This document shows, piece by piece, positions 421 to 48,584 of a stretch of DNA of 64,000 nucleotides (positions within the stretch are counted from its first letter, which is position 1; each line of letters starts with the position of its first letter). The DNA is from Truepera sp. GTDB lineage: Bacteria; Deinococcota; Deinococci; Deinococcales; Trueperaceae. A program made the translations under genes and the position numbers. A model generated the notes under the pieces. The model did no database searches. It was not told where the DNA came from and worked only from the letters and a program-made list of their open reading frames with translations. The stretch is from NCBI GenBank assembly GCA_032027045.1, contig JAVSMU010000001.1, positions 2,309,112 through 2,373,111 on the forward strand, given 5' to 3'.

Positions 421-1995
421 GTGATGCGAGGGGCCAAGGCGGTATCAAGGCACCTTATTAGATATCTGCTCTTTGGCTGTCTTACAGCGGTTGGTTTCTG
501 GAGCGCCGCAAGTTTCCTGCTGAATTACTACGCCCTTTCTGGATCCCCACAGCGGGTCAAAGAGATCTCTATCGGTTTCGGTGGAGTGACGCATCTGCTT
601 AAAGGCGCGGTCGGTGCCACTCGTACTTGGCAAGTAGAAAAGCCAGCCGAAGCCACCATTTCTTTCGCTGCGAGGCTTGACGAACAGACGGCTGCTCCGC
701 GCTGGGAACTCGCACCAAGTATCGAGTCTCCTGCTGGTACCGCAAGAAAGCTTGCTTTGAGCCCCGATGGTAAGTTGATGCTGGAGGGTCCTTCAAACGA
801 GGTTGCCCGATACTTGATCGTTCTTGGTGCGCCGCTGGCAGGTCGCCATTTCCGAGCAAGCTTCGACGTTGAACCCGGGGGAGACGACACGCCAGTTGTC
901 GGTACCGTTGCTCTCAGCTCACAGGACGGCCGCGACAAAAGCAGTACCAACTTCCGTGTCACAGAAGCCGAAGCCCTCGTTTCAACCTGGAGTGCGCCGC
1001 CAAACCTGGATGGTTACGTATTGGTCGTGACGCTCAGCAATCTCGGTGGATATGGCTCCATCGGCTCACCGGCAATACAAGAACAGCTGGACGGCAGTTG
1101 GGCTCAACCTACGCTTGCCACCATAGCAATCGACGCACAGGCTCACAAACAGGCCATTGTGGTAGACGGCGAATGGAACGTGTATAGAACGGAAGGCATC
1201 TGGCTGGACGGGAAGCAGCTGTCTGCACGATTGACATTGGGTTCTGGTAACCGAGTCCTCATTCGTGATTTCAATGCGACTGAGACCAAGAGCGACCACG
1301 CACTCCGCATACTGCCAACCAAGTCAAGGGTGTCACTACTGGGAATCCACCCGAACCTACTCGCGCACAGCGTGGTTAGCGTGTTTGGAGCTTTACTCTT
1401 TATCGGGGGCCCGCTTTGGCTAAGCGTCGCCTCTACTGTTCTGGCTTTTGTCGCGCTTGGTATGTTTGGTAGTAGAATCGCACTCATCGCCGCCGCAATT
1501 GCCTTGATGTACTTCGGCACCATTTCTTGGCGAAGACATAAGGTCGCGATATTCTTTTCCCTAGTGTCCATCTCTTTGGTAGCCGTCGTGGCTATCGGAT
1601 TTGCCAGCAGTTTCCAGCGGGAGCCAGAAGTTGGCGTAGTCAGCCGGCCCGAGATCTGGAGGGTCGCATGGCAAGGGTTTACGGCTAACTTCCCTAACGG
1701 TATTCAGACGAGCTTCTCCGATTACTGGGCGGACAAGGCTCCAACCCGCCCACCTATATCCCACGCACACAATTTCTGGCTTCAACTGTCTGTGAAGTAT
1801 GGCCTCCTCGGCCTACTAGGCTCAGTCGCATTGACAGTTGCGCTGGGGATATTCGCATGGCGAAGGTACCGATGGCGAGGTTTGGGGCTCCTTCTACCCC
1901 TCTACCTGTTGAACGTTTTCGATTACTCATTTTCCTTTGTGGGTGTATACGTACCGCTAGCGCTCGCGCTCTGGATCGGTAAGCGAAGGAGTTAG
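421..1995 (+). CDS. O-antigen ligase/polymerase-like (Wzy_C-type) membrane protein with a large N-terminal extracytoplasmic domain
   Basis: 524 aa. It has an N-terminal TM helix, then ~270 aa with no TM segments, then a multi-TM block. The signature loop ISHAHNFWLQLSVKYGLLGLLG resembles the Wzy_C motif also seen in the next gene ([22 protein letters not shown]). Confidence 0.6.
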   Translation: MMRGAKAVSRHLIRYLLFGCLTAVGFWSAASFLLNYYALSGSPQRVKEISIGFGGVTHLLKGAVGATRTWQVEKPAEATISFAARLDEQTAAPRWELAPSIESPAGTARKLALSPDGKLMLEGPSNEVARYLIVLGAPLAGRHFRASFDVEPGGDDTPVVGTVALSSQDGRDKSSTNFRVTEAEALVSTWSAPPNLDGYVLVVTLSNLGGYGSIGSPAIQEQLDGSWAQPTLATIAIDAQAHKQAIVVDGEWNVYRTEGIWLDGKQLSARLTLGSGNRVLIRDFNATETKSDHALRILPTKSRVSLLGIHPNLLAHSVVSVFGALLFIGGPLWLSVASTVLAFVALGMFGSRIALIAAAIALMYFGTISWRRHKVAIFFSLVSISLVAVVAIGFASSFQREPEVGVVSRPEIWRVAWQGFTANFPNGIQTSFSDYWADKAPTRPPISHAHNFWLQLSVKYGLLGLLGSVALTVALGIFAWRRYRWRGLGLLLPLYLLNVFDYSFSFVGVYVPLALALWIGKRRS

Positions 1996-2109: not shown

Positions 2110-5100
2110 GTGATGGCCGCGACGACCCCCAACTTCCGCCGTGGACTCGCCTTCATGGCAGGCCTTGGCATCGCAGCTATCCCGACCGTAGGCCCCTTCC
2201 TCGCCGTCCTCACGCTCTTCGCGGGCCGGTTAGCGTTCCAGCGTGCAGACCTCTGGTGGTGGGTCTCGGCGGCTTTGCTTAGCCTCCCCTTCCTGCTCAC
2301 CGGCCACCCTTGGGACTCACTCCTCACGGTGGCACAAGTACTGGGGGTTTGGCTCATTTTCCGCTCGGCGACGGAGTTCCGCCACAGCGCCAAGAGCAGG
2401 ACCATATCGGAGGACATCGGGGCCGGCTTGGTGGTCGGGCTTGCCATCACCTTGGCCCTTGGGCTGAGGCAGCTTGGGGGCTTCCGTTTTGACGTCGCCA
2501 AGACGGCGCTGGACGCCATAACGTGGAATACGCACCCGGCCGTGTTCGGCCACGCCATCCTGATCTTGGCAGCTTCACTCGCGGTAATAGTGCCATCTCC
2601 ACGACTTCGGGTGCTGGCCCTCGCCATCGGTGCGGTGGGCGTCGTAATTTCGGGTGCGCGCGAGGCCGTCTGGGCTTGGTTGATCATCGCGCTTGGCCTC
2701 CAGTTCGCCGGCAGGCGAGCGCAACGCGGGACCAAGGTGGTGGAGTGGGCGCTCATCGTCACGATGACCTTGCTCGTCACTGGCGTAGCAACTCACTTGG
2801 GTCTGGGCCGTACGGGGTTCCTCACAGCCTACGTACCCGAACTCGACAACCCGAACCTGTTCCGCGGCACGGAGGTGGCCAAAGGCGACTGGTGGTTCCC
2901 CCTAGGCGTCACCTTCGGTAGCCATGAAGAGTTCGTCGACGGCGAGACCCGTTCGGTAATCGACGTGACCAAGACGTCCCCCGAGCCATGGTCGAGGCTC
3001 CAGCAGGCTGTCATCCTTGCTCCGGGCGAGGCCTACACGCTTTCGGCGCTGCTGCGACCATCTCCAGGAGCCACCCCTGGGTTCGACAGCTGGGGACAGG
3101 ACAACAATACGGCCTCCACGGTCACTCTTGGCACGGTCCTGGACGGCGGCACACACCGCGTCACCAGCAGCACGGGGATGAAAGTGATATCCACCGGCGC
3201 CGAGGTCTTGGAAGCAGATTGGGCCAGGGCAAGCGTCACCTTCGAGTATCTGGGCGACCGGCCACTGACCTGGTACGTGGGCGTCGTGCCTGACCGCTCC
3301 AACCTCCTAGGGGTCACCTCGAGCTTCGCGGAGTTGCAGTTGGTTCAGTCGTATTCCGTCATGCCGTACCGGCCGGGTGCGGCCGTTCGAGGTGTCACCG
3401 ATGTTAGGCAATCTCGGTTTCCCATCTGGCGCGACGCTCTCGAAGCGATCCGCTCGAAGCCCATCCTGGGCTGGGGTCCTGAAGGTTTCCCGAAGGCCGT
3501 CCACAGCGCACTCGCCGGCCAGATCCTGCTAAGGCCCGTAGCCGCCCACGCACACAACGCGTTCCTTGCGGTCTGGGTGGACCGTGGCCTAGTCGGCTTG
3601 ATCGGGCTGCTCGGCCTCTTCGGCTTGTTGTTCCTTAGGGCCATCCAGCAACGCGACAGAGGTGCACTCGTGATCCTGGCGGGCATGATCGTGCTCAACC
3701 TCTTCGACTTCACGGTGTTCTCGGGTTCGGTCATATACCCCCTTGCCGCCGTGCTGGGTTGGCGAGCGGCCGGGCACCGGCGCACCGCCGACCATGAGGC
3801 CGGGTCGGGTGGCAACCTCTTCACTCGCATGGGCCTGGCAGCTGCGGATTGGGCCGTGGCAGTTTCGGCGTTCGCCATCGCGTACTTGGCATTGTCAGCC
3901 GCCACGTCGCCCGCTCAACCGGCGAGCAACGACCCGTTCAACGTTCTCTACCTCGCGCTCCTTTGGCCCCTCGCCAACGCTCTCAGTGGCCAGTACCCCG
4001 CTTATGGCCGTCCCAGCTCGGCGGAGTTGCAGTGGAGCGTCGTTGGAGCCGGCGCTGCCGGAATCACGGCTCTCCTGATCGGCGCGGCCTTCCCGGGTCA
4101 GGTACACGTGCCCCTTTCCGTCATTTTTCTCGCCACCGGCATAACCATCATCCTCAGCCCCCTCGGGCGAGGCCTCGCCAAACGAACCCTGTATGCCCTT
4201 CGCATCTGGGGAAGGCCAGTGGTCGTCTTTGGCCATAGGGGGTCCGCCGACGAACTCACCGAGTCCTTGTTGGCCCAACCGCTCCTGGGCCTGCGGCCGG
4301 TTGGACTGGTCGATGCGGATCCAGCCGCATCAATGCCGGCCTCGCTGCGAGCCATAGCCTGGCGTGAACTCTCGCCGGCAGTCGAGCGGCTCTCCAATCA
4401 CTGCATCGTGCAGCCGGGGCAGCAGAACTCGACCATCGTTCAGGCGGTATTGACGTCCGCTGGCCGGAACACCTTCCGCGACATCCAGGTCGTCCCCGAT
4501 TTGCACGACATCCCGAGCTCGGACGTGATCGCTAAACCCCTAGGCAGGTCCCTAAGCCTTCAGGTGCGGAACAACCTCGCATCTCCGGCCAATCGGGCAT
4601 TCAAACGCGGGTTCGACCTGCTCCTAGTGGTGCTAGGGGGGCTCGTGGCGATACCGGTTCTTGTGCTCCTTGCTCTGGCGATTCGGCTCGACTCGAAGGG
4701 ACCCGTCTATTTCAAGCAGCGCAGGATAGGCCGTGACGGGGTGCCCTTCTACGTCTGGAAGTTCCGCAGCATGGTCGCCGACGCACCGGAGCGCCTCGCC
4801 TCACTGCTCGAGAACGACCCGGAGGCACGCCGAGAGTGGGAGGCCACTCAGAAGTTGGTAGATGATCCACGCGTCACGCGCGTGGGGAAGCTGCTCAGGA
4901 AGACGAGCCTGGACGAGCTTCCGCAACTTTGGAACGTCCTCCGTGGAGAGATGAGCCTGGTGGGTCCGCGGCCGATCGTCGACGAGGAGATCGCGAAGTA
5001 CGGTGAGCATTTTCGGTACTACATACAGGTGAGGCCAGGCATGACGGGCGTGTGGCAAGTCTCAGGGAGGTCCGACACCTCATACGACTTCCGCGTTTCT

Positions 5101-38685: not shown

Positions 38686-38686
<1 letters not shown>
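38102..38686 (-). CDS. hypothetical protein (Pro/Ala-rich N-terminus + helical C-terminal domain)
   Basis: Its ATG overlaps the proS stop by 1 nt (TGATG). GC3 is high in the C-terminal half. The track ORF 38102..38788 is over-extended into proS. Confidence 0.55.
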
Positions 38687-41920
<3,234 letters not shown>

Positions 41921-41993
41921 GCCGGCATTCTGCCACGGTGCGTGAGTAGTCCCGTGAGCCCTACGGGGCGCTGGGGACGGTTAGCCTCGGCTC

Positions 41994-42707
41994 ATGCGCA
42001 TCGAGATCTGGTCCGACATCGCCTGCCCCTGGTGTTACATAGGCAAGACGCGCTTCGAGGCCGCGCTCGCCGAGTACGAGCACAAGGATTCCGTCGAAGT
42101 CGTGTGGCGCTCCTACGAACTCCAGGCCGGCGCCCCCAAGCGCGATCCCGAACCGGCGATCGCTCACCTGATGGCCAAGTACGGCCGCTCGCAAGGCGAG
42201 GTGCTGGAGATGTTGGCGCGAGTGACCGAGGAGGCGGCGAAAGAGGGGCTCGAGTACCACCTCGACAAGGCCGTGTCGGCCAGCACGTTCGACGCCCACC
42301 GGCTCATCCACTTCGCCGCGGAGCGCGGCCTGGGCCACGAGGCGATGACGCGGCTCATGCAGGCCTACCAGGGCGAGGGCGCCGACGTCTCGGACCCCGA
42401 CACCCTGGTGAGGCTGGGCGCCGAGGTGGGGCTCGTCGGCGACGAGGTACGCACCCTTCTCGCCGGCGACGAGTACGGCGCCGACGTGCTCGCCGACGAG
42501 CGCCGCGCGCGATCCCTGGGGGTCAGCGGGGTGCCCTTCTTCGTCATCGACGAACTGCACGGCATCTCCGGGGCCCAACCCAGAGAGTTCTTCCTGGCCG
42601 CACTGCGCCAGCTCGGGCCGCAGGTGAGGCCCGTGGTGATGCTGGACCCCGCCGGAGCGGCGGCCGGCGCCTGCACGGACGACTCCTGCGAGTTGCCGCA
42701 GTCCTGA
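41994..42707 (+). CDS. DsbA-family thiol:disulfide oxidoreductase, FrnE-like
   Basis: IEIWSDIACPWCYIGK (CPWC) and GVSGVPFFVI. C-terminal tail GACTDDSCELPQS (C-x4-C). ATG lies 7 nt after a TAGCCT box. Confidence 0.85.
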   Translation: MRIEIWSDIACPWCYIGKTRFEAALAEYEHKDSVEVVWRSYELQAGAPKRDPEPAIAHLMAKYGRSQGEVLEMLARVTEEAAKEGLEYHLDKAVSASTFDAHRLIHFAAERGLGHEAMTRLMQAYQGEGADVSDPDTLVRLGAEVGLVGDEVRTLLAGDEYGADVLADERRARSLGVSGVPFFVIDELHGISGAQPREFFLAALRQLGPQVRPVVMLDPAGAAAGACTDDSCELPQS

Positions 42708-42741
42708 CCGGCCACGGCGGCCTTTTCGCCGCCCACGCCGG

Positions 42742-42823
42742 TGCTATAGTGCACGGCAGCATGGCGCTGCGAATGATGCACTCCGGCCCTGAAAGCGACT
42801 GACCGCCCAGGTCGGTTCGTTCA
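42742..42823 (+). promoter_or_regulatory. candidate metG leader: extended -10 promoter, 13-codon Met-Met micro-ORF and antiterminator hairpin
   Basis: TGCTATAGT at 42742-42750. ATG 42761 to TGA 42802 encodes MALRMMHSGPESD. GCCCUGAA 42786-93 pairs with UUCAGGGC 42820-27, which overlaps the terminator 5-prime arm. Confidence 0.4.
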
Positions 42824-42859
42824 GGGCGCCGTGCACCAACGACGGCGCCCTTCTTGTTG
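42824..42859 (+). terminator. rho-independent terminator between dsbA-like gene and metG
   Basis: 9-bp stem GGGCGCCGU/ACGGCGCCC, 9-nt loop, tail UUCUUGUUG. Confidence 0.7.
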
Positions 42860-42956
42860 CGCCGGCCGGCACGCCGGTCGCCCCTGGCCGGGCAGCCGAA
42901 GGGCCGCGGCGCCAGCAGCCTAGTGGCCGACGGCCGCTGCTCGGAGGAAACGCAAG

Positions 42957-45011
42957 ATGGACAGCGAAACCTTAATCAACCGCTTGGTCGTCGATGCCCC
43001 CGAGGACACGGCCGAACCCGCCGCTGCCGCGGACGAGGCCGATCCGGACGACGTCGCGCTGCCGGAAGCCGACCCGGAACCGGGCCCGGCCGCACGAGAG
43101 CGCGACACGTACTACGCGACCACCCCCATCTTCTACGTGAACGCGGCGCCGCACATGGGCCACGCCTACACGACCATCCTGGTCGACGTCGTCACGCGCT
43201 TCCACCGCCTCAAGGGCGACGACACGTTCTTCCTGACGGGCACCGACGAGCATGGCGAGAAGATCCAGAAGGCGGCCGAGGCCCATGGCGAGTCGCCGCA
43301 GGCCTACGCCGATCAGGTGAGCGGCGAGTTCCGCGACACGTGGGACCGGCTAGGCATCCGCTACGACGACTTCATCCGCACCACCGAACCTCGGCACAAG
43401 AAGGTCGTGCAAGAGGTGCTGCAGAAGGTGTACGACAAGGGCGACATCGTCTTCGGCGAGTACGCCGGTCTCTACTGCGTGAAGTGCGAGCGCTACTACA
43501 CGGAGAAGGAGCTGGTGGACGGCAAGTGCCCGCAGCACGAGATCGAGCTCGAGTACCGCACCGAGGCGAACTACTTCTTCCGCATGGAGAAGTACCGCCT
43601 GTGGCTCAGGGACCTGCTCACGGAGCAACCCGACCTGATAAGACCCGAGCGCTACCGCAACGAGGTCCTGGCCATGCTGCGCGAAAGCGTCGGCGACCTC
43701 TCCATCAGCCGGCCTCGTAGCCGCGTGCCCTGGGGCATCCCGCTGCCGTGGGACGAGGAGCACGTGACGTACGTCTGGTTCGACGCCCTCATCAACTACT
43801 ACTCGGCGCTCGAGAGCAAGGGCCTAACCGAGCGCTTCTGGCCGCACGTCGAGCACTTCATAGCCAAGGACATCGTGAAGCCGCACGGGCTCTTCTGGCC
43901 CATCATGCTGAAGGCGGCCGACATCCCCGTCTTCAAGCACCTGAACGTGCACGGCTACTGGCTCGTGGACGACCGCAAGATCAGCAAGTCGCTCGGCAAC
44001 ACGGTGAAGCCCTTGGACCTGCTGAAGAAGTACGGCAACGATGCCTTCCGCTACTTCCTGCTGCGCGACATGCCGTTCGGCCTCGACTCGAGCTTCAACG
44101 AGCTCGCCATCGCCGAGCGCATCAACGCCGACCTCGCCAACGACCTGGGCAACCTCCTGAACCGCACCCTCGGGATGCTGGGACGTTACCGCGACGGGCT
44201 CGTGCCGCCCGCCCGCCAGCTCGAAGCCATCGACCAGGACCTGGCTGACGCCTTCCTCGCCCTGCCAGCCACGGTGACGAGCTACTTCGACGCGCTGCAG
44301 TTCGACCGCGCGCTGGAGAGCGTGATGGAGGCCGTGCGCAAGGCCAACAAGTACATTGCCGATACCAAGCCGTGGGAGCTGGCCCGCAGCGAGGAGGACT
44401 CCGCCCGCCTCGACACGGTGCTGAACACCCTGGTCGAGGCCCTGCGCTGCGCCAGCATAGTGCTGGACCCGGTCATCCCGGCCAAGGCCCTCGAGCTGCG
44501 CAAACAGCTCGGCGTGCGCAACGCCCCTTACGACCTGAGCGCGGCGAGCGAGTGGGGGCTCGTGCCGGTGGGCACGGCAACGCAGCCGGGCGAACCGCTC
44601 TTCCCCCGCATCGACTTAGACGAGCTGACGCGCGAGATAGAGGCCGCCGCCACGCCATCCGCACAGGTGGCGCTCGAGCACAAGCCGGAGATCGAGTACG
44701 ACGACTTCGGCAAGCTCGAGTTGCGCATAGTGACGGTGGAGAAGGCCGAGCAGCACCCGAACGCCGACAGGCTCCTGGTGCTGACCGTGCGCATGGGCCC
44801 CGAGACGCGCACCGTCGTTAGCGGCATCAAGGAGCACTACGACGCGGCCGACCTCGTGGGCAAGAAGCTGGTGTTGGTGGCCAACCTCAAGCCCGTGAAA
44901 CTGCGCGGGGTCTTGAGCCAGGGCATGATCCTCTCCGGCGAGGGGCCGGATGGCGGTCTGGGGCTGGTGAGCCCCGAGCGTGACCTGCCCGACGGGAGTG
45001 AGGTGCGCTGA
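42957..45011 (+). CDS. metG: methionine--tRNA ligase with C-terminal tRNA-binding (Trbp111-like) domain
   Basis: TPIFYVNAAPHMGHAYT (HIGH region) and KISKSLGN (KMSKS). C-terminal LELRIVTVEKAEQHPNADRLLVL... GGAGGAA lies 7 nt upstream of the ATG. Confidence 0.92.
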   Translation: MDSETLINRLVVDAPEDTAEPAAAADEADPDDVALPEADPEPGPAARERDTYYATTPIFYVNAAPHMGHAYTTILVDVVTRFHRLKGDDTFFLTGTDEHGEKIQKAAEAHGESPQAYADQVSGEFRDTWDRLGIRYDDFIRTTEPRHKKVVQEVLQKVYDKGDIVFGEYAGLYCVKCERYYTEKELVDGKCPQHEIELEYRTEANYFFRMEKYRLWLRDLLTEQPDLIRPERYRNEVLAMLRESVGDLSISRPRSRVPWGIPLPWDEEHVTYVWFDALINYYSALESKGLTERFWPHVEHFIAKDIVKPHGLFWPIMLKAADIPVFKHLNVHGYWLVDDRKISKSLGNTVKPLDLLKKYGNDAFRYFLLRDMPFGLDSSFNELAIAERINADLANDLGNLLNRTLGMLGRYRDGLVPPARQLEAIDQDLADAFLALPATVTSYFDALQFDRALESVMEAVRKANKYIADTKPWELARSEEDSARLDTVLNTLVEALRCASIVLDPVIPAKALELRKQLGVRNAPYDLSAASEWGLVPVGTATQPGEPLFPRIDLDELTREIEAAATPSAQVALEHKPEIEYDDFGKLELRIVTVEKAEQHPNADRLLVLTVRMGPETRTVVSGIKEHYDAADLVGKKLVLVANLKPVKLRGVLSQGMILSGEGPDGGLGLVSPERDLPDGSEVR

Positions 45012-48296: not shown

Positions 48297-48403
48297 GGCG
48301 TGCATCGTAGCAACCGACGCCCGTGATGCGTGGCCGAACCAGGCCACGACCAAGGGAGGTTTATCATGGGTCCGGGTGGCGCGGACGCGCCCCTCACAAC
48401 TGA

Positions 48404-48546
48404 ACCCCTTCAGGGCAGGGTGAGATTCCCTACCGGCGGTGAATGGCGCGGCACGTGACCGACGCCACAGCCCGCGAAGCCCACCAAGGTGGGCCCGAAC
48501 CGGTGAGATCCCGGTGCCGACGGTGACAGTCCGGATGAGAGAAGGA
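48404..48546 (+). promoter_or_regulatory. FMN riboswitch (RFN element)
   Basis: CUUCAGGGCAGGGUGAGAUUCCCUACCGGCGGUGA...AGCCCGCGAAGC...CCGGUGAGAUCCCGGUGCCGACGGUGACAGUCCGGAUGAGAGAAGG matches the RFN consensus blocks. It lies directly upstream of ribD. Confidence 0.9.
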
Positions 48547-48584
48547 GGTGAAGCGACGGCCGCGAGACTGCGGTCGCGGCTTCC

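Follow-up and report, generated by a model that had tools for sequence, protein, structure and literature searches.

A candidate leaderless Met-codon attenuator upstream of metG in Truepera and its relatives

The window analyzed here, a 64-kb stretch of DNA from a genome of the Trueperaceae (Deinococcota; 68% GC), carries metG, the gene for methionyl-tRNA synthetase (MetRS), downstream of a dsbA-like gene. Homologs of the encoded protein share 65–89% identity with it within the Trueperaceae, the closest (86–89%) belonging to Trueperaceae or Truepera MAGs, and those of Deinococcus, which contain PF09334 and PF01588, go by the name methionine--tRNA ligase. Initiator and elongator tRNA alike depend on MetRS for charging, and all protein synthesis is therefore gated by the level of this enzyme. 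To our knowledge, little is understood of how MetRS is regulated outside the Firmicutes, where a T-box is used.

Between the two genes lie a putative promoter, a short open reading frame (ORF) with a tandem pair of Met codons, and two overlapping hairpins, followed by metG with its own Shine-Dalgarno (SD) sequence (Table 1). The initial annotation had read this arrangement as a Met-codon attenuator, and inspection of the sequence verified the −10 element, the ORF, the tandem ATG, the helices, the terminator, the SD sequence, and the metG ATG at the positions given for them. The hairpin said to follow the dsbA-like stop codon is likewise real. The first leader helix and the terminator indeed have G42824–C42827 in common, as had been claimed. 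The hairpin built on that helix was also recovered, but its inner stem, described as 5 bp, is about 10 bp long with one bulge and holds the UGA stop codon. The leader ORF has no SD sequence, and the −10 element ends 10 nt before the AUG. Given this spacing, transcription in the window probably starts 2–4 nt 5′ of the AUG, not exactly on it. The terminator is separated from metG by 98 nt, and GGAGGA precedes the metG start in related loci too.

Table 1. Features of the leader region upstream of metG, in window coordinates
Feature	Position	Strand	Properties and basis
Hairpin 3′ of the dsbA-like stop codon	42708–42741		−21.9 kcal/mol, z = −3.8
Extended −10 promoter, TGCTATAGT	42742–42750	+	Putative driver of the leader and metG transcript; promoter function predicted from sequence
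Leader ORF, 13 codons, predicted to be leaderless or near-leaderless, MALRMMHSGPESD*	42761–42802	+	Translated from the sequence
ORF 5′ end, GGCGCUGCG	42763–42771	+	Pairs with the terminator 3′ arm (42840–42849) in the ribosome-free full-length leader
Tandem Met codons 5–6 (ATG ATG)	42773–42778	+	Proposed regulatory codons
Possible antiterminator extension P1	42774–42781	+	Met5/Met6 and codon 7 pair with 42831–42838 (distal 5′ arm and loop of the terminator)
Antiterminator hairpin P2, 42 nt	42786–42827	+	−26.5 kcal/mol, z = −4.9, 0/200 shuffles
P2 outer helix	42786–42792 with 42821–42827	+	GCCCUGAA (42786–93) pairs with UUCAGGGC (42820–27)
P2 inner helix, ~10 bp, one bulge	42795–42804 with 42810–42820	+	UGA stop codon (42800–42802) inside
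Intrinsic terminator hairpin, GGGCGCCGU/ACGGCGCCC	42824–32/42842–50	+	−18.8 kcal/mol, z = −4.0
Terminator U-rich tract, UUCUUGUUG	42851–42859	+	Read off the sequence
metG Shine-Dalgarno sequence, GGAGGAA	42944–42950	+	Read off the sequence
metG, methionyl-tRNA synthetase, 684 aa, C-terminal tRNA-binding domain	42957–45011	+	Proposed regulated gene; ORF

When both strands of the 64-kb window were scanned generically for any −10 box followed after 5–10 nt by a short ORF and a terminator, the metG leader was the sole match. A scan with consensus promoters and terminators gave no match at the leader, which lacks a −35 box; its terminator was most likely missed because the 9-nt loop exceeds the limit of 8 set in that scan.

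To place the leader in a comparative setting, we scanned one genome per species with the MetRS protein, which gave 80 loci. Inspection combined with regular-expression and ORF/terminator searches identified leaders of matching architecture at 59 of them, drawn from high-GC and low-GC Trueperaceae, Meiothermus, Calidithermus, Thermus, and Deinococcus. Four further Deinococcus leaders were added through their MetRS proteins, for a total of 63, the window included; these leaders are phylogenetically related, so the counts that follow overstate the number of independent events. One plan is common to all 63: a −10 box, an AUG- or GUG-initiated ORF with Met codons, a hairpin at the stop codon, and an overlapping terminator. 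When the intergenic region was used as a blastn query, only positions ~42739–42860 were conserved, always 5′ of metG. Among the loci inspected, the element is absent from four of the Trueperaceae (L027, L028, L039, and L074), and it is absent from the non-Deinococcota loci examined. Its recurrence 5′ of metG in 62 other genomes, together with its uniqueness in the 64-kb window, argues that the arrangement is more than chance, and conservation across the Deinococcus-Thermus phylum indicates that it is very probably a ribosome-sensing on/off switch. No copy was found before genes other than metG in the window, in any of the fetched loci, or in the metagenome pattern scans, and a wider Met regulon was set aside as a candidate.

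The initial annotation had cautioned that the terminator may merely end the dsbA-like transcript. This concern lost its footing on comparison, as a dsbA-like gene lies upstream in just 9 of the 58 other genome-derived leader loci, leaving 49 without it. A metagenome pattern scan pointed the same way: of its 92 matches, 80 lacked a terminator and were chance matches, and the 12 genuine leaders without exception precede metG. Together, these counts argue that the element belongs with metG and is not the terminator of an upstream gene. They also bear on a reading without any regulation, in which the hairpins end or insulate the dsbA-like transcript and metG is transcribed from a downstream promoter of its own. 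The strong hairpin directly after the dsbA-like stop codon and the 98-nt spacer between terminator and metG in the window would fit such a layout, as would the −10-like TATGCT or TACACT found right past the terminator at Deinococcus loci. We nevertheless regard it as extremely unlikely, given that the element accompanies metG where the dsbA-like gene is missing. Moreover, in several relatives (e.g., L006 and L008) the U-tract runs straight into the metG SD sequence, so metG must there be transcribed through the terminator. A variant of the same reading, in which the ORF encodes a functional micropeptide whose transcript ends at its own terminator, is countered by the peptide itself, whose sequence takes 62 distinct forms in the 63 leaders and, beyond Met and the residues encoded by paired bases, is poorly conserved.

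We then considered whether the ORF bears signs of translation. It starts with AUG in 58 leaders and GUG in five, always 4–10 nt 3′ of a TAnnnT box that usually reads TGCTAnACT. In about 50 Trueperaceae loci, TGCTAnnnT holds a fixed place 6–10 nt 5′ of the start codon, although the upstream genes are unrelated. This start-to-box geometry appears to be that of leaderless mRNAs, which according to dRNA-seq in D. deserti dominate in the phylum of that species (de Groot et al. 2014, PMC4007540). The window holds a second example in proS, where TGCTAAGCT is followed by 8 nt and then ATG, a matching promoter-to-ATG layout that likewise looks leaderless. The missing SD sequence, earlier raised as an objection to the ORF, is therefore what one would expect in this phylum.

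Further signs of coding come from the reading frame. The distance from the start codon to the conserved Met codons differs among leaders by −3, +3, +6, +9, or +15 nt, in each case a multiple of three. A sense codon never replaces the stop codon, for which UGA (35 leaders), UAG (16), and UAA (12) are used. Its second and third bases covary with the bases they pair with: in the 45-sequence alignment, RNAalifold pairs its second position as GC in 30 sequences and AU in 15, and its third as AU in 36 and GC in 6. Outside Met, the peptide varies except for residues whose codons lie in the helices (Pro10 and the Asp/Gly at position 13). The micro-ORF and its Met codons, whose conservation the initial annotation had proposed to check in relatives, are kept in 63 of 63 leaders.

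Three of the 13 residues of the window peptide are Met, and the tandem ATG had been flagged as a possible chance occurrence. Chance does not account for it, as internal AUG codons are present in every one of the 63 leaders, 38 of which contain a tandem Met-Met. AUG makes up 14% of the internal leader codons, compared with 1.5% of the codons in five genes of the window. The codon before Met is conserved as well: CGA stands there in 40 of the 63 leaders versus 4.7% of the Arg codons in the same five genes, a strong conservation at the nucleotide level that the attenuator reading does not account for.

For the RNA structure, a plain MAFFT alignment of 45 Trueperaceae leaders was analyzed with RNAalifold, which recovered the inner stem and the terminator with compensatory changes in 10 of their 14 pairs. 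The terminator is present in all orthologs, and 5 of its 8 aligned pairs show compensatory changes. A U-rich tail follows the hairpin in most orthologs and is weaker in several high-GC Trueperaceae. For the antiterminator helices, outer and inner combined, 91.8% of the cells in the 45 sequences are paired compared with 80.4% after shuffling, a level reached in 0 of 500 shuffles; controls in which the helices were slid along the alignment gave 24–46%. Cells changed on both sides number 74 versus 22.6 in the shuffles, and again 0 of 500 reached the observed covariation. The outer helix is mostly invariant (CCCUG with CAGGG) and shows few compensatory events. Compensation, which had been sought in both competing helices, was thus found for the inner stem and the terminator, whereas the case for an outer helix that competes with the terminator is made mainly by sequence conservation.

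The base shared by the two structures provides a further view of the competition. In L017, where the shared base is A in place of G, each of its two alternative partners has U (GCUCUG / CAGAGC / GCGCUC). The same holds for L016, L018, L038, L024, L026, and L049 (CCUUG or ACCUGG / CAAGG or CCAGG / GCGCCU). Such three-way agreement at a shared base is what a switch predicts.

Folding of the full leader (42761–42858) gave one long rod without a terminator (−51.3 kcal/mol, z = −5.2, 0/200 shuffles). Within this rod, the terminator 3′ arm is taken up by ORF bases 42763–42771, the distal 5′ arm and loop by Met6 and codon 7, and the base of the 5′ arm by codons 9–11. The initial annotation had confined the competition to four nucleotides; that sharing was borne out, but the extent was too narrow, as the whole 5′ half of the ORF in the free leader pairs with the terminator loop and 3′ arm. 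The extension P1 is present in the MFE fold of a leader cut before the terminator 3′ arm. Its comparative support is weak, with cognate duplexes averaging −7.0 kcal/mol versus −5.9 kcal/mol for non-cognate ones, and on this modeling we treat P1 as a possible extension, not an established helix.

A rod of such stability raises the question of whether the RNA acts without being translated, as a riboregulator that binds a ligand, tRNA-Met, or MetRS in the style of a riboswitch, T-box, or thrS operator, or as a small RNA of ~95 nt, the ORF being incidental. In keeping with this, GCGAAUGAUGC is conserved at the nucleotide level, its rare CGA codon included, and metG is under T-box control in the Firmicutes. 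The T-box (RF00230) was recovered with 123 bits in our positive control, upstream of the metG homolog of the Firmicute Fervidicola (L057), where it stands in place of the leader element. Rfam searches, however, found no family in the leader (41500–44000 at E ≤ 10; the whole window at the gathering threshold) or in any Deinococcota leader among seven related loci scanned. The T-box in particular had no match in 41500–44000 at E ≤ 10 or in the whole window at its gathering threshold, and no Rfam riboswitch, including those of the SAM and methionine pathways, matched the leader. Elsewhere, the window contains a single riboswitch, an FMN element at 48402–48550.

For a thrS-type operator, we looked for CAU presented as in an anticodon loop. 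No hairpin in the window presents it in this way; the spacer at 42859–42956 contains no CAU, and the leader has no 7-nt loop with CAU. A CAU-loop candidate of the thrS type does exist in the metG leaders of D. deserti and D. radiodurans. CAU in terminator loops, considered as a tRNA mimic, was seen by eye in ~8 of 59 loops, roughly the chance level, and was rejected. An untranslated riboregulator also fits poorly with a start codon tied to the promoter, indels in threes only, and a stop codon that varies only among stops, and we consider it very unlikely.

To examine the alternative structures as a function of ribosome position, we masked the RNA from its 5′ end to 13 nt past the first P-site base and computed the ensemble probability of the complete terminator stem, P(terminator), in the full leader. 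These ensemble probabilities replaced a count of terminator-arm bases paired in truncated MFE folds, which proved noisy. With no ribosome, the median P(terminator) over 59 leaders was 0.002 (window, 0.00), compared with 0.69 in a control with shuffled upstream sequence, and the value was below 0.5 in 54 of the 59 orthologs. With the first or last conserved Met codon in the A site, the median was 0.11 (window, 0.04; shuffled upstream, 0.71). Once the stop codon occupied the A site, it rose to 0.86 (window, 0.92; shuffled upstream, 0.86). The logic originally proposed, with read-through in the absence of a ribosome or during a stall at Met and termination when a ribosome sits at the stop codon, was thus reproduced in silico.

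In the 41 thirteen-codon leaders, P(terminator) does not exceed 0.12 with codons 2–6 in the A site, reaches 0.47 when codon 7 is there, and is no lower than 0.9 for codon 8 and beyond. With a 13-nt shield, a waiting ribosome would therefore leave the antiterminator intact no further along than Met5-Met6. A 16-nt shield (P+16) moves the jump one codon earlier, and Met5 alone, not Met6, still protects the antiterminator. Across leaders, the switch point falls 1–2 codons past the last Met in 39 of the 57 that could be assessed. The relation extends to ORFs of 7, 12, 14, 15, 19, and 25 codons, with examples in L029 and L031 (Met 11–12, switch at 13), L036 (Met 5–6, switch at 7), L044, L045, Thermus, and the Deinococcus locus L077. 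Under the identical thermodynamic model, the Meiothermus leaders show only a partial switch, and those of D. deserti and D. radiodurans show no clear switch.

A rival reading is an attenuator that reports only whether the leaderless ORF is translated, that is, general translation capacity or the availability of fMet-tRNA and 70S ribosomes, with the Met codons kept for pairing or by ancestry. It is the ribosome-free state, after all, that is most strongly antiterminated. Met6 and codon 7 can pair with the distal arm and loop of the terminator, the Met codon in Thermus directly adjoins the 5′ arm of the antiterminator, and Met6 stops protecting the antiterminator under the larger footprint. Pairing, on the other hand, is a poor reason for AUG in all 63 leaders, as other bases could pair there and P1 is weak. 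The Met codons also move with the switch point across seven different leader lengths, and two adjacent Met codons, as found in 38 of the 63, are the classical signature of regulatory codons. On balance, we find it unlikely that the element reports translation alone.

We therefore favor, with a probability of roughly 0.7, a transcription attenuator of the ribosome-mediated, leader-peptide type, which would adjust the expression of metG to the Met-tRNA available. The evidence in hand comprises the sequence elements, their conservation, the covariation of the inner stem and terminator, and the in silico switch; from these we infer the transcription start, translation of the ORF, stalling at the Met codons, and a response in vivo. 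Transcription would start a few nucleotides past the extended −10 element, placing the 5′ end of the RNA at the AUG or no more than ~3 nt from it, and a 70S ribosome carrying fMet-tRNA would load onto the 13-codon ORF without an SD sequence. On reaching the UGA, this ribosome would cover codons 9–13 and with them the 5′ half of P2, freeing G42824–C42827. The terminator (42824–42850) with its U-tract could then form, and RNA polymerase would stop before metG. If the ribosome fails to load, as when fMet-tRNAfMet is scarce, or waits at Met codons 5–6 for want of Met-tRNAMet, P2 would stay folded. In the ribosome-free case, the 5′ half of the ORF would additionally pair with the rest of the terminator. 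Either way, the base of the terminator would be sequestered and polymerase would continue into metG.

A more far-reaching version, which we put forward only tentatively and consider doubtful, is that the leader is a dual-input sensor of MetRS output of a kind unique to leaderless mRNAs. Loading of the 70S ribosome would report fMet-tRNAfMet, the tandem AUG, set exactly where a stalled ribosome can still spare the antiterminator for the last time, would report Met-tRNAMet, and read-through would be the default of an untranslated leader. If this version is true, the element would be the first demonstrated case of an attenuator whose regulatory codon is Met, and one conserved across the whole of Deinococcota. 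At ~100 nt, the leader is compact, phylum-wide, and amenable to mutational analysis, and it gives access to two questions: can leaderless translation drive attenuation, and can AUG serve as a regulatory codon?

In E. coli, pheST with its leader peptide pheM shows that the attenuation principle serves an aminoacyl-tRNA synthetase. The metG leader shares with pheST and trp (trpL) attenuation by translation of a leader of ~14 codons that contains cognate codons, with an antiterminator set against an intrinsic terminator, and the tandem pair of regulatory codons in the window recalls that of trpL. Judged against the trp/his/pheST class, the locus has a short ORF at the 5′ end upstream of the gene proposed to be regulated and Met codons as the cognate codons (63 of 63 leaders, 38 in tandem). 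An intrinsic terminator lies between the leader ORF and the structural gene, and in silico, the antiterminator is ribosome dependent and mutually exclusive with it. The window leader differs from pheST and trp in that it is predicted to be leaderless and has no SD sequence. Unlike trp, it has three segments instead of four and no 1:2 anti-antiterminator, so that an untranslated leader is predicted to read through where trp super-attenuates. Its regulatory codon, AUG, is also the start codon, another difference from pheST and trp, and both initiation and elongation would consequently report MetRS activity. The T-box of Firmicutes metS/metG (RF00230) likewise senses tRNA-Met charging and controls MetRS by antitermination, but it does so through direct RNA–RNA contact with the tRNA and without a ribosome, and the window has no T-box match at E ≤ 10.

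The closest known relatives are found in Deinococcus. In D. deserti, dRNA-seq showed leaderless leader peptides ahead of aminoacyl-tRNA synthetase genes: in several mRNAs of synthetase and amino acid genes, the 5′ AUG opens a short coding region whose product is rich in the cognate residue (de Groot et al. 2014, PMC4007540). Fourteen such leaders were put forward there as predicted attenuators and entered in the annotation, with cysS and trpEGD as the examples shown in the main text (PMC4007540). The D. deserti genome record contains an annotated 15-aa CDS, MMFRFLSKMRMLRCS, with four Met residues, 134 nt upstream of metG. Judging from the genome annotation, this CDS is almost certainly one of the 14, since no automatic gene caller would call such a CDS. 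The window leader resembles the D. deserti leader peptides in phylum, in gene, in a −10 element a few nucleotides before a 5′ AUG, and in the lack of an SD sequence. As in Deinococcus-type leader peptides, it precedes an aminoacyl-tRNA synthetase gene and encodes a peptide enriched in the cognate residue; there is no SD sequence, and the −10 element ends 10 nt before the start codon in the window and 4–10 nt before it in the orthologs.

The initial annotation was aware of no description of attenuation of this type for MetRS. The idea is not wholly new, as de Groot et al. (2014) predicted the class and a Met-rich CDS before metG is annotated in D. deserti. Full-text searches returned no other article describing a leader peptide or attenuator for metG or Met. 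The kind is thus already known as a prediction, and the metG leader family itself probably is too. New in the present work are a member from Truepera, an alignment spanning the phylum, the covariation, and, in quantitative terms, the position of the Met codons at the switch point. With the exception of D. deserti, the element is at present unannotated in Deinococcota genomes, and the 63 aligned leaders could seed an RNA or leader-peptide family for their annotation.

The D. deserti metG leader itself has the layout seen in the window, with a short Met-rich peptide (MMFRFLSKMRMLRCS versus MALRMMHSGPESD), then a hairpin with a U-tract, and a synthetase gene led by an SD sequence. The two peptides can hardly be aligned, the D. 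deserti one containing MRM where the window has RMM, and in the thermodynamic model the Truepera leader switches whereas that of D. deserti shows no clear switch.

Four Trueperaceae metG loci (L027, L028, L039 and L074) have no leader in the 330 nt inspected upstream of position 3001. Some lineages have therefore either lost the attenuator or never acquired it. At L027, L039 and L074, a TGCTAnnnT-type −10 box stands directly before the metG SD and start codon; no such box was evident in the 330 nt inspected at L028. In another phylum, the metG homologue of Fervidicola (Firmicutes) lies downstream of a T-box leader and is an example of metG under a different sensor.

Where the leader is present, its ORF shows a further regularity. 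Of the 63 orthologous leaders, 40 have CGA directly ahead of the Met codons, although CGA accounts for only 4.7% of the Arg codons in five genes of the window (68% GC). This preference could reflect selection on the nucleotide sequence or, alternatively, on slow decoding.

Additional elements occupy the spacer before metG at some Deinococcus loci. D. deserti (L081) and D. radiodurans (L082) share a nearly identical element of ~40 nt, located downstream of the attenuator terminator and upstream of the metG SD, which is missing from the window and from L077, another Deinococcus locus. The folded element is a hairpin whose 7-nt loop, CUCAUCA, is identical at six of seven positions to the tRNA-Met anticodon loop CUCAUAA, with CAU central. 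The hairpin may be a thrS-like operator for MetRS binding. Moreover, a −10-like hexamer, TATGCT or TACACT, abuts the 3′ side of the attenuator U-tract at three Deinococcus loci (L081, L082 and L084), which suggests a second promoter that would bypass the attenuator.

The spacer is also elaborated in three low-GC Trueperaceae (L022, L030 and L051), where an SD and a second small ORF lie downstream of the leader terminator. The peptide of this ORF includes R-M-(R/H), e.g., MHLERMRKANY*. Between the ORF and metG are ~90-240 nt, a spacer that includes a long hairpin in L030. The arrangement may represent a second regulatory tier.

Coordinates and scores of elements in the window and at other metG loci
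Feature	Locus	Position	Strand	Details
Hairpin	window	42708-42741	+	−21.9 kcal/mol, z = −3.8; directly 3′ of dsbA-like stop codon
Codon before Met codons	window	42770-42772		
MetRS N-terminal extension	window	42957-43110	+	~50 residues
proS	window	38686-40134	-	
proS promoter region	window	40134-40160	-	
FMN riboswitch	window	48402-48550	+	RF00050, 98.5 bits, E = 1.4e-21
T-box leader	L057 (Fervidicola)	2845-3050	+	RF00230, 123 bits
~40-nt element	L081	about 1149-1187		
~40-nt element	L082	about 1148-1185		
−10-like hexamer	L081	1136-1141		
−10-like hexamer	L082	1135-1140		
−10-like hexamer	L084	1153-1158		
Region with second small ORF	L022	2790-3000		
Region with second small ORF	L030	2822-2990		
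Region with second small ORF	L051	2776-3000		

The hairpin after the dsbA-like gene ends one base short of the leader −10 box, lacks a U-tract, and has no counterpart in the closest relative (L001). This strong hairpin is outside the conserved metG leader and may serve the upstream gene, either by stabilising the 3′ end of its transcript or as its terminator. On the other side of the leader, MetRS itself begins with an acidic, Ala/Pro/Asp/Glu-rich extension ahead of the catalytic core. This extension varies in length and is unalignable in most relatives, with tblastn matches beginning at query residues 8-52.

Across the whole window, the FMN riboswitch is the only Rfam match at the gathering threshold. 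The proS promoter region consists of an extended −10 (TGCTAAGCT) followed after 8 nt by the proS ATG, with no SD before that codon in this region. From this arrangement, the proS mRNA appears to be leaderless, and its promoter geometry is identical to that of the metG leader ORF.
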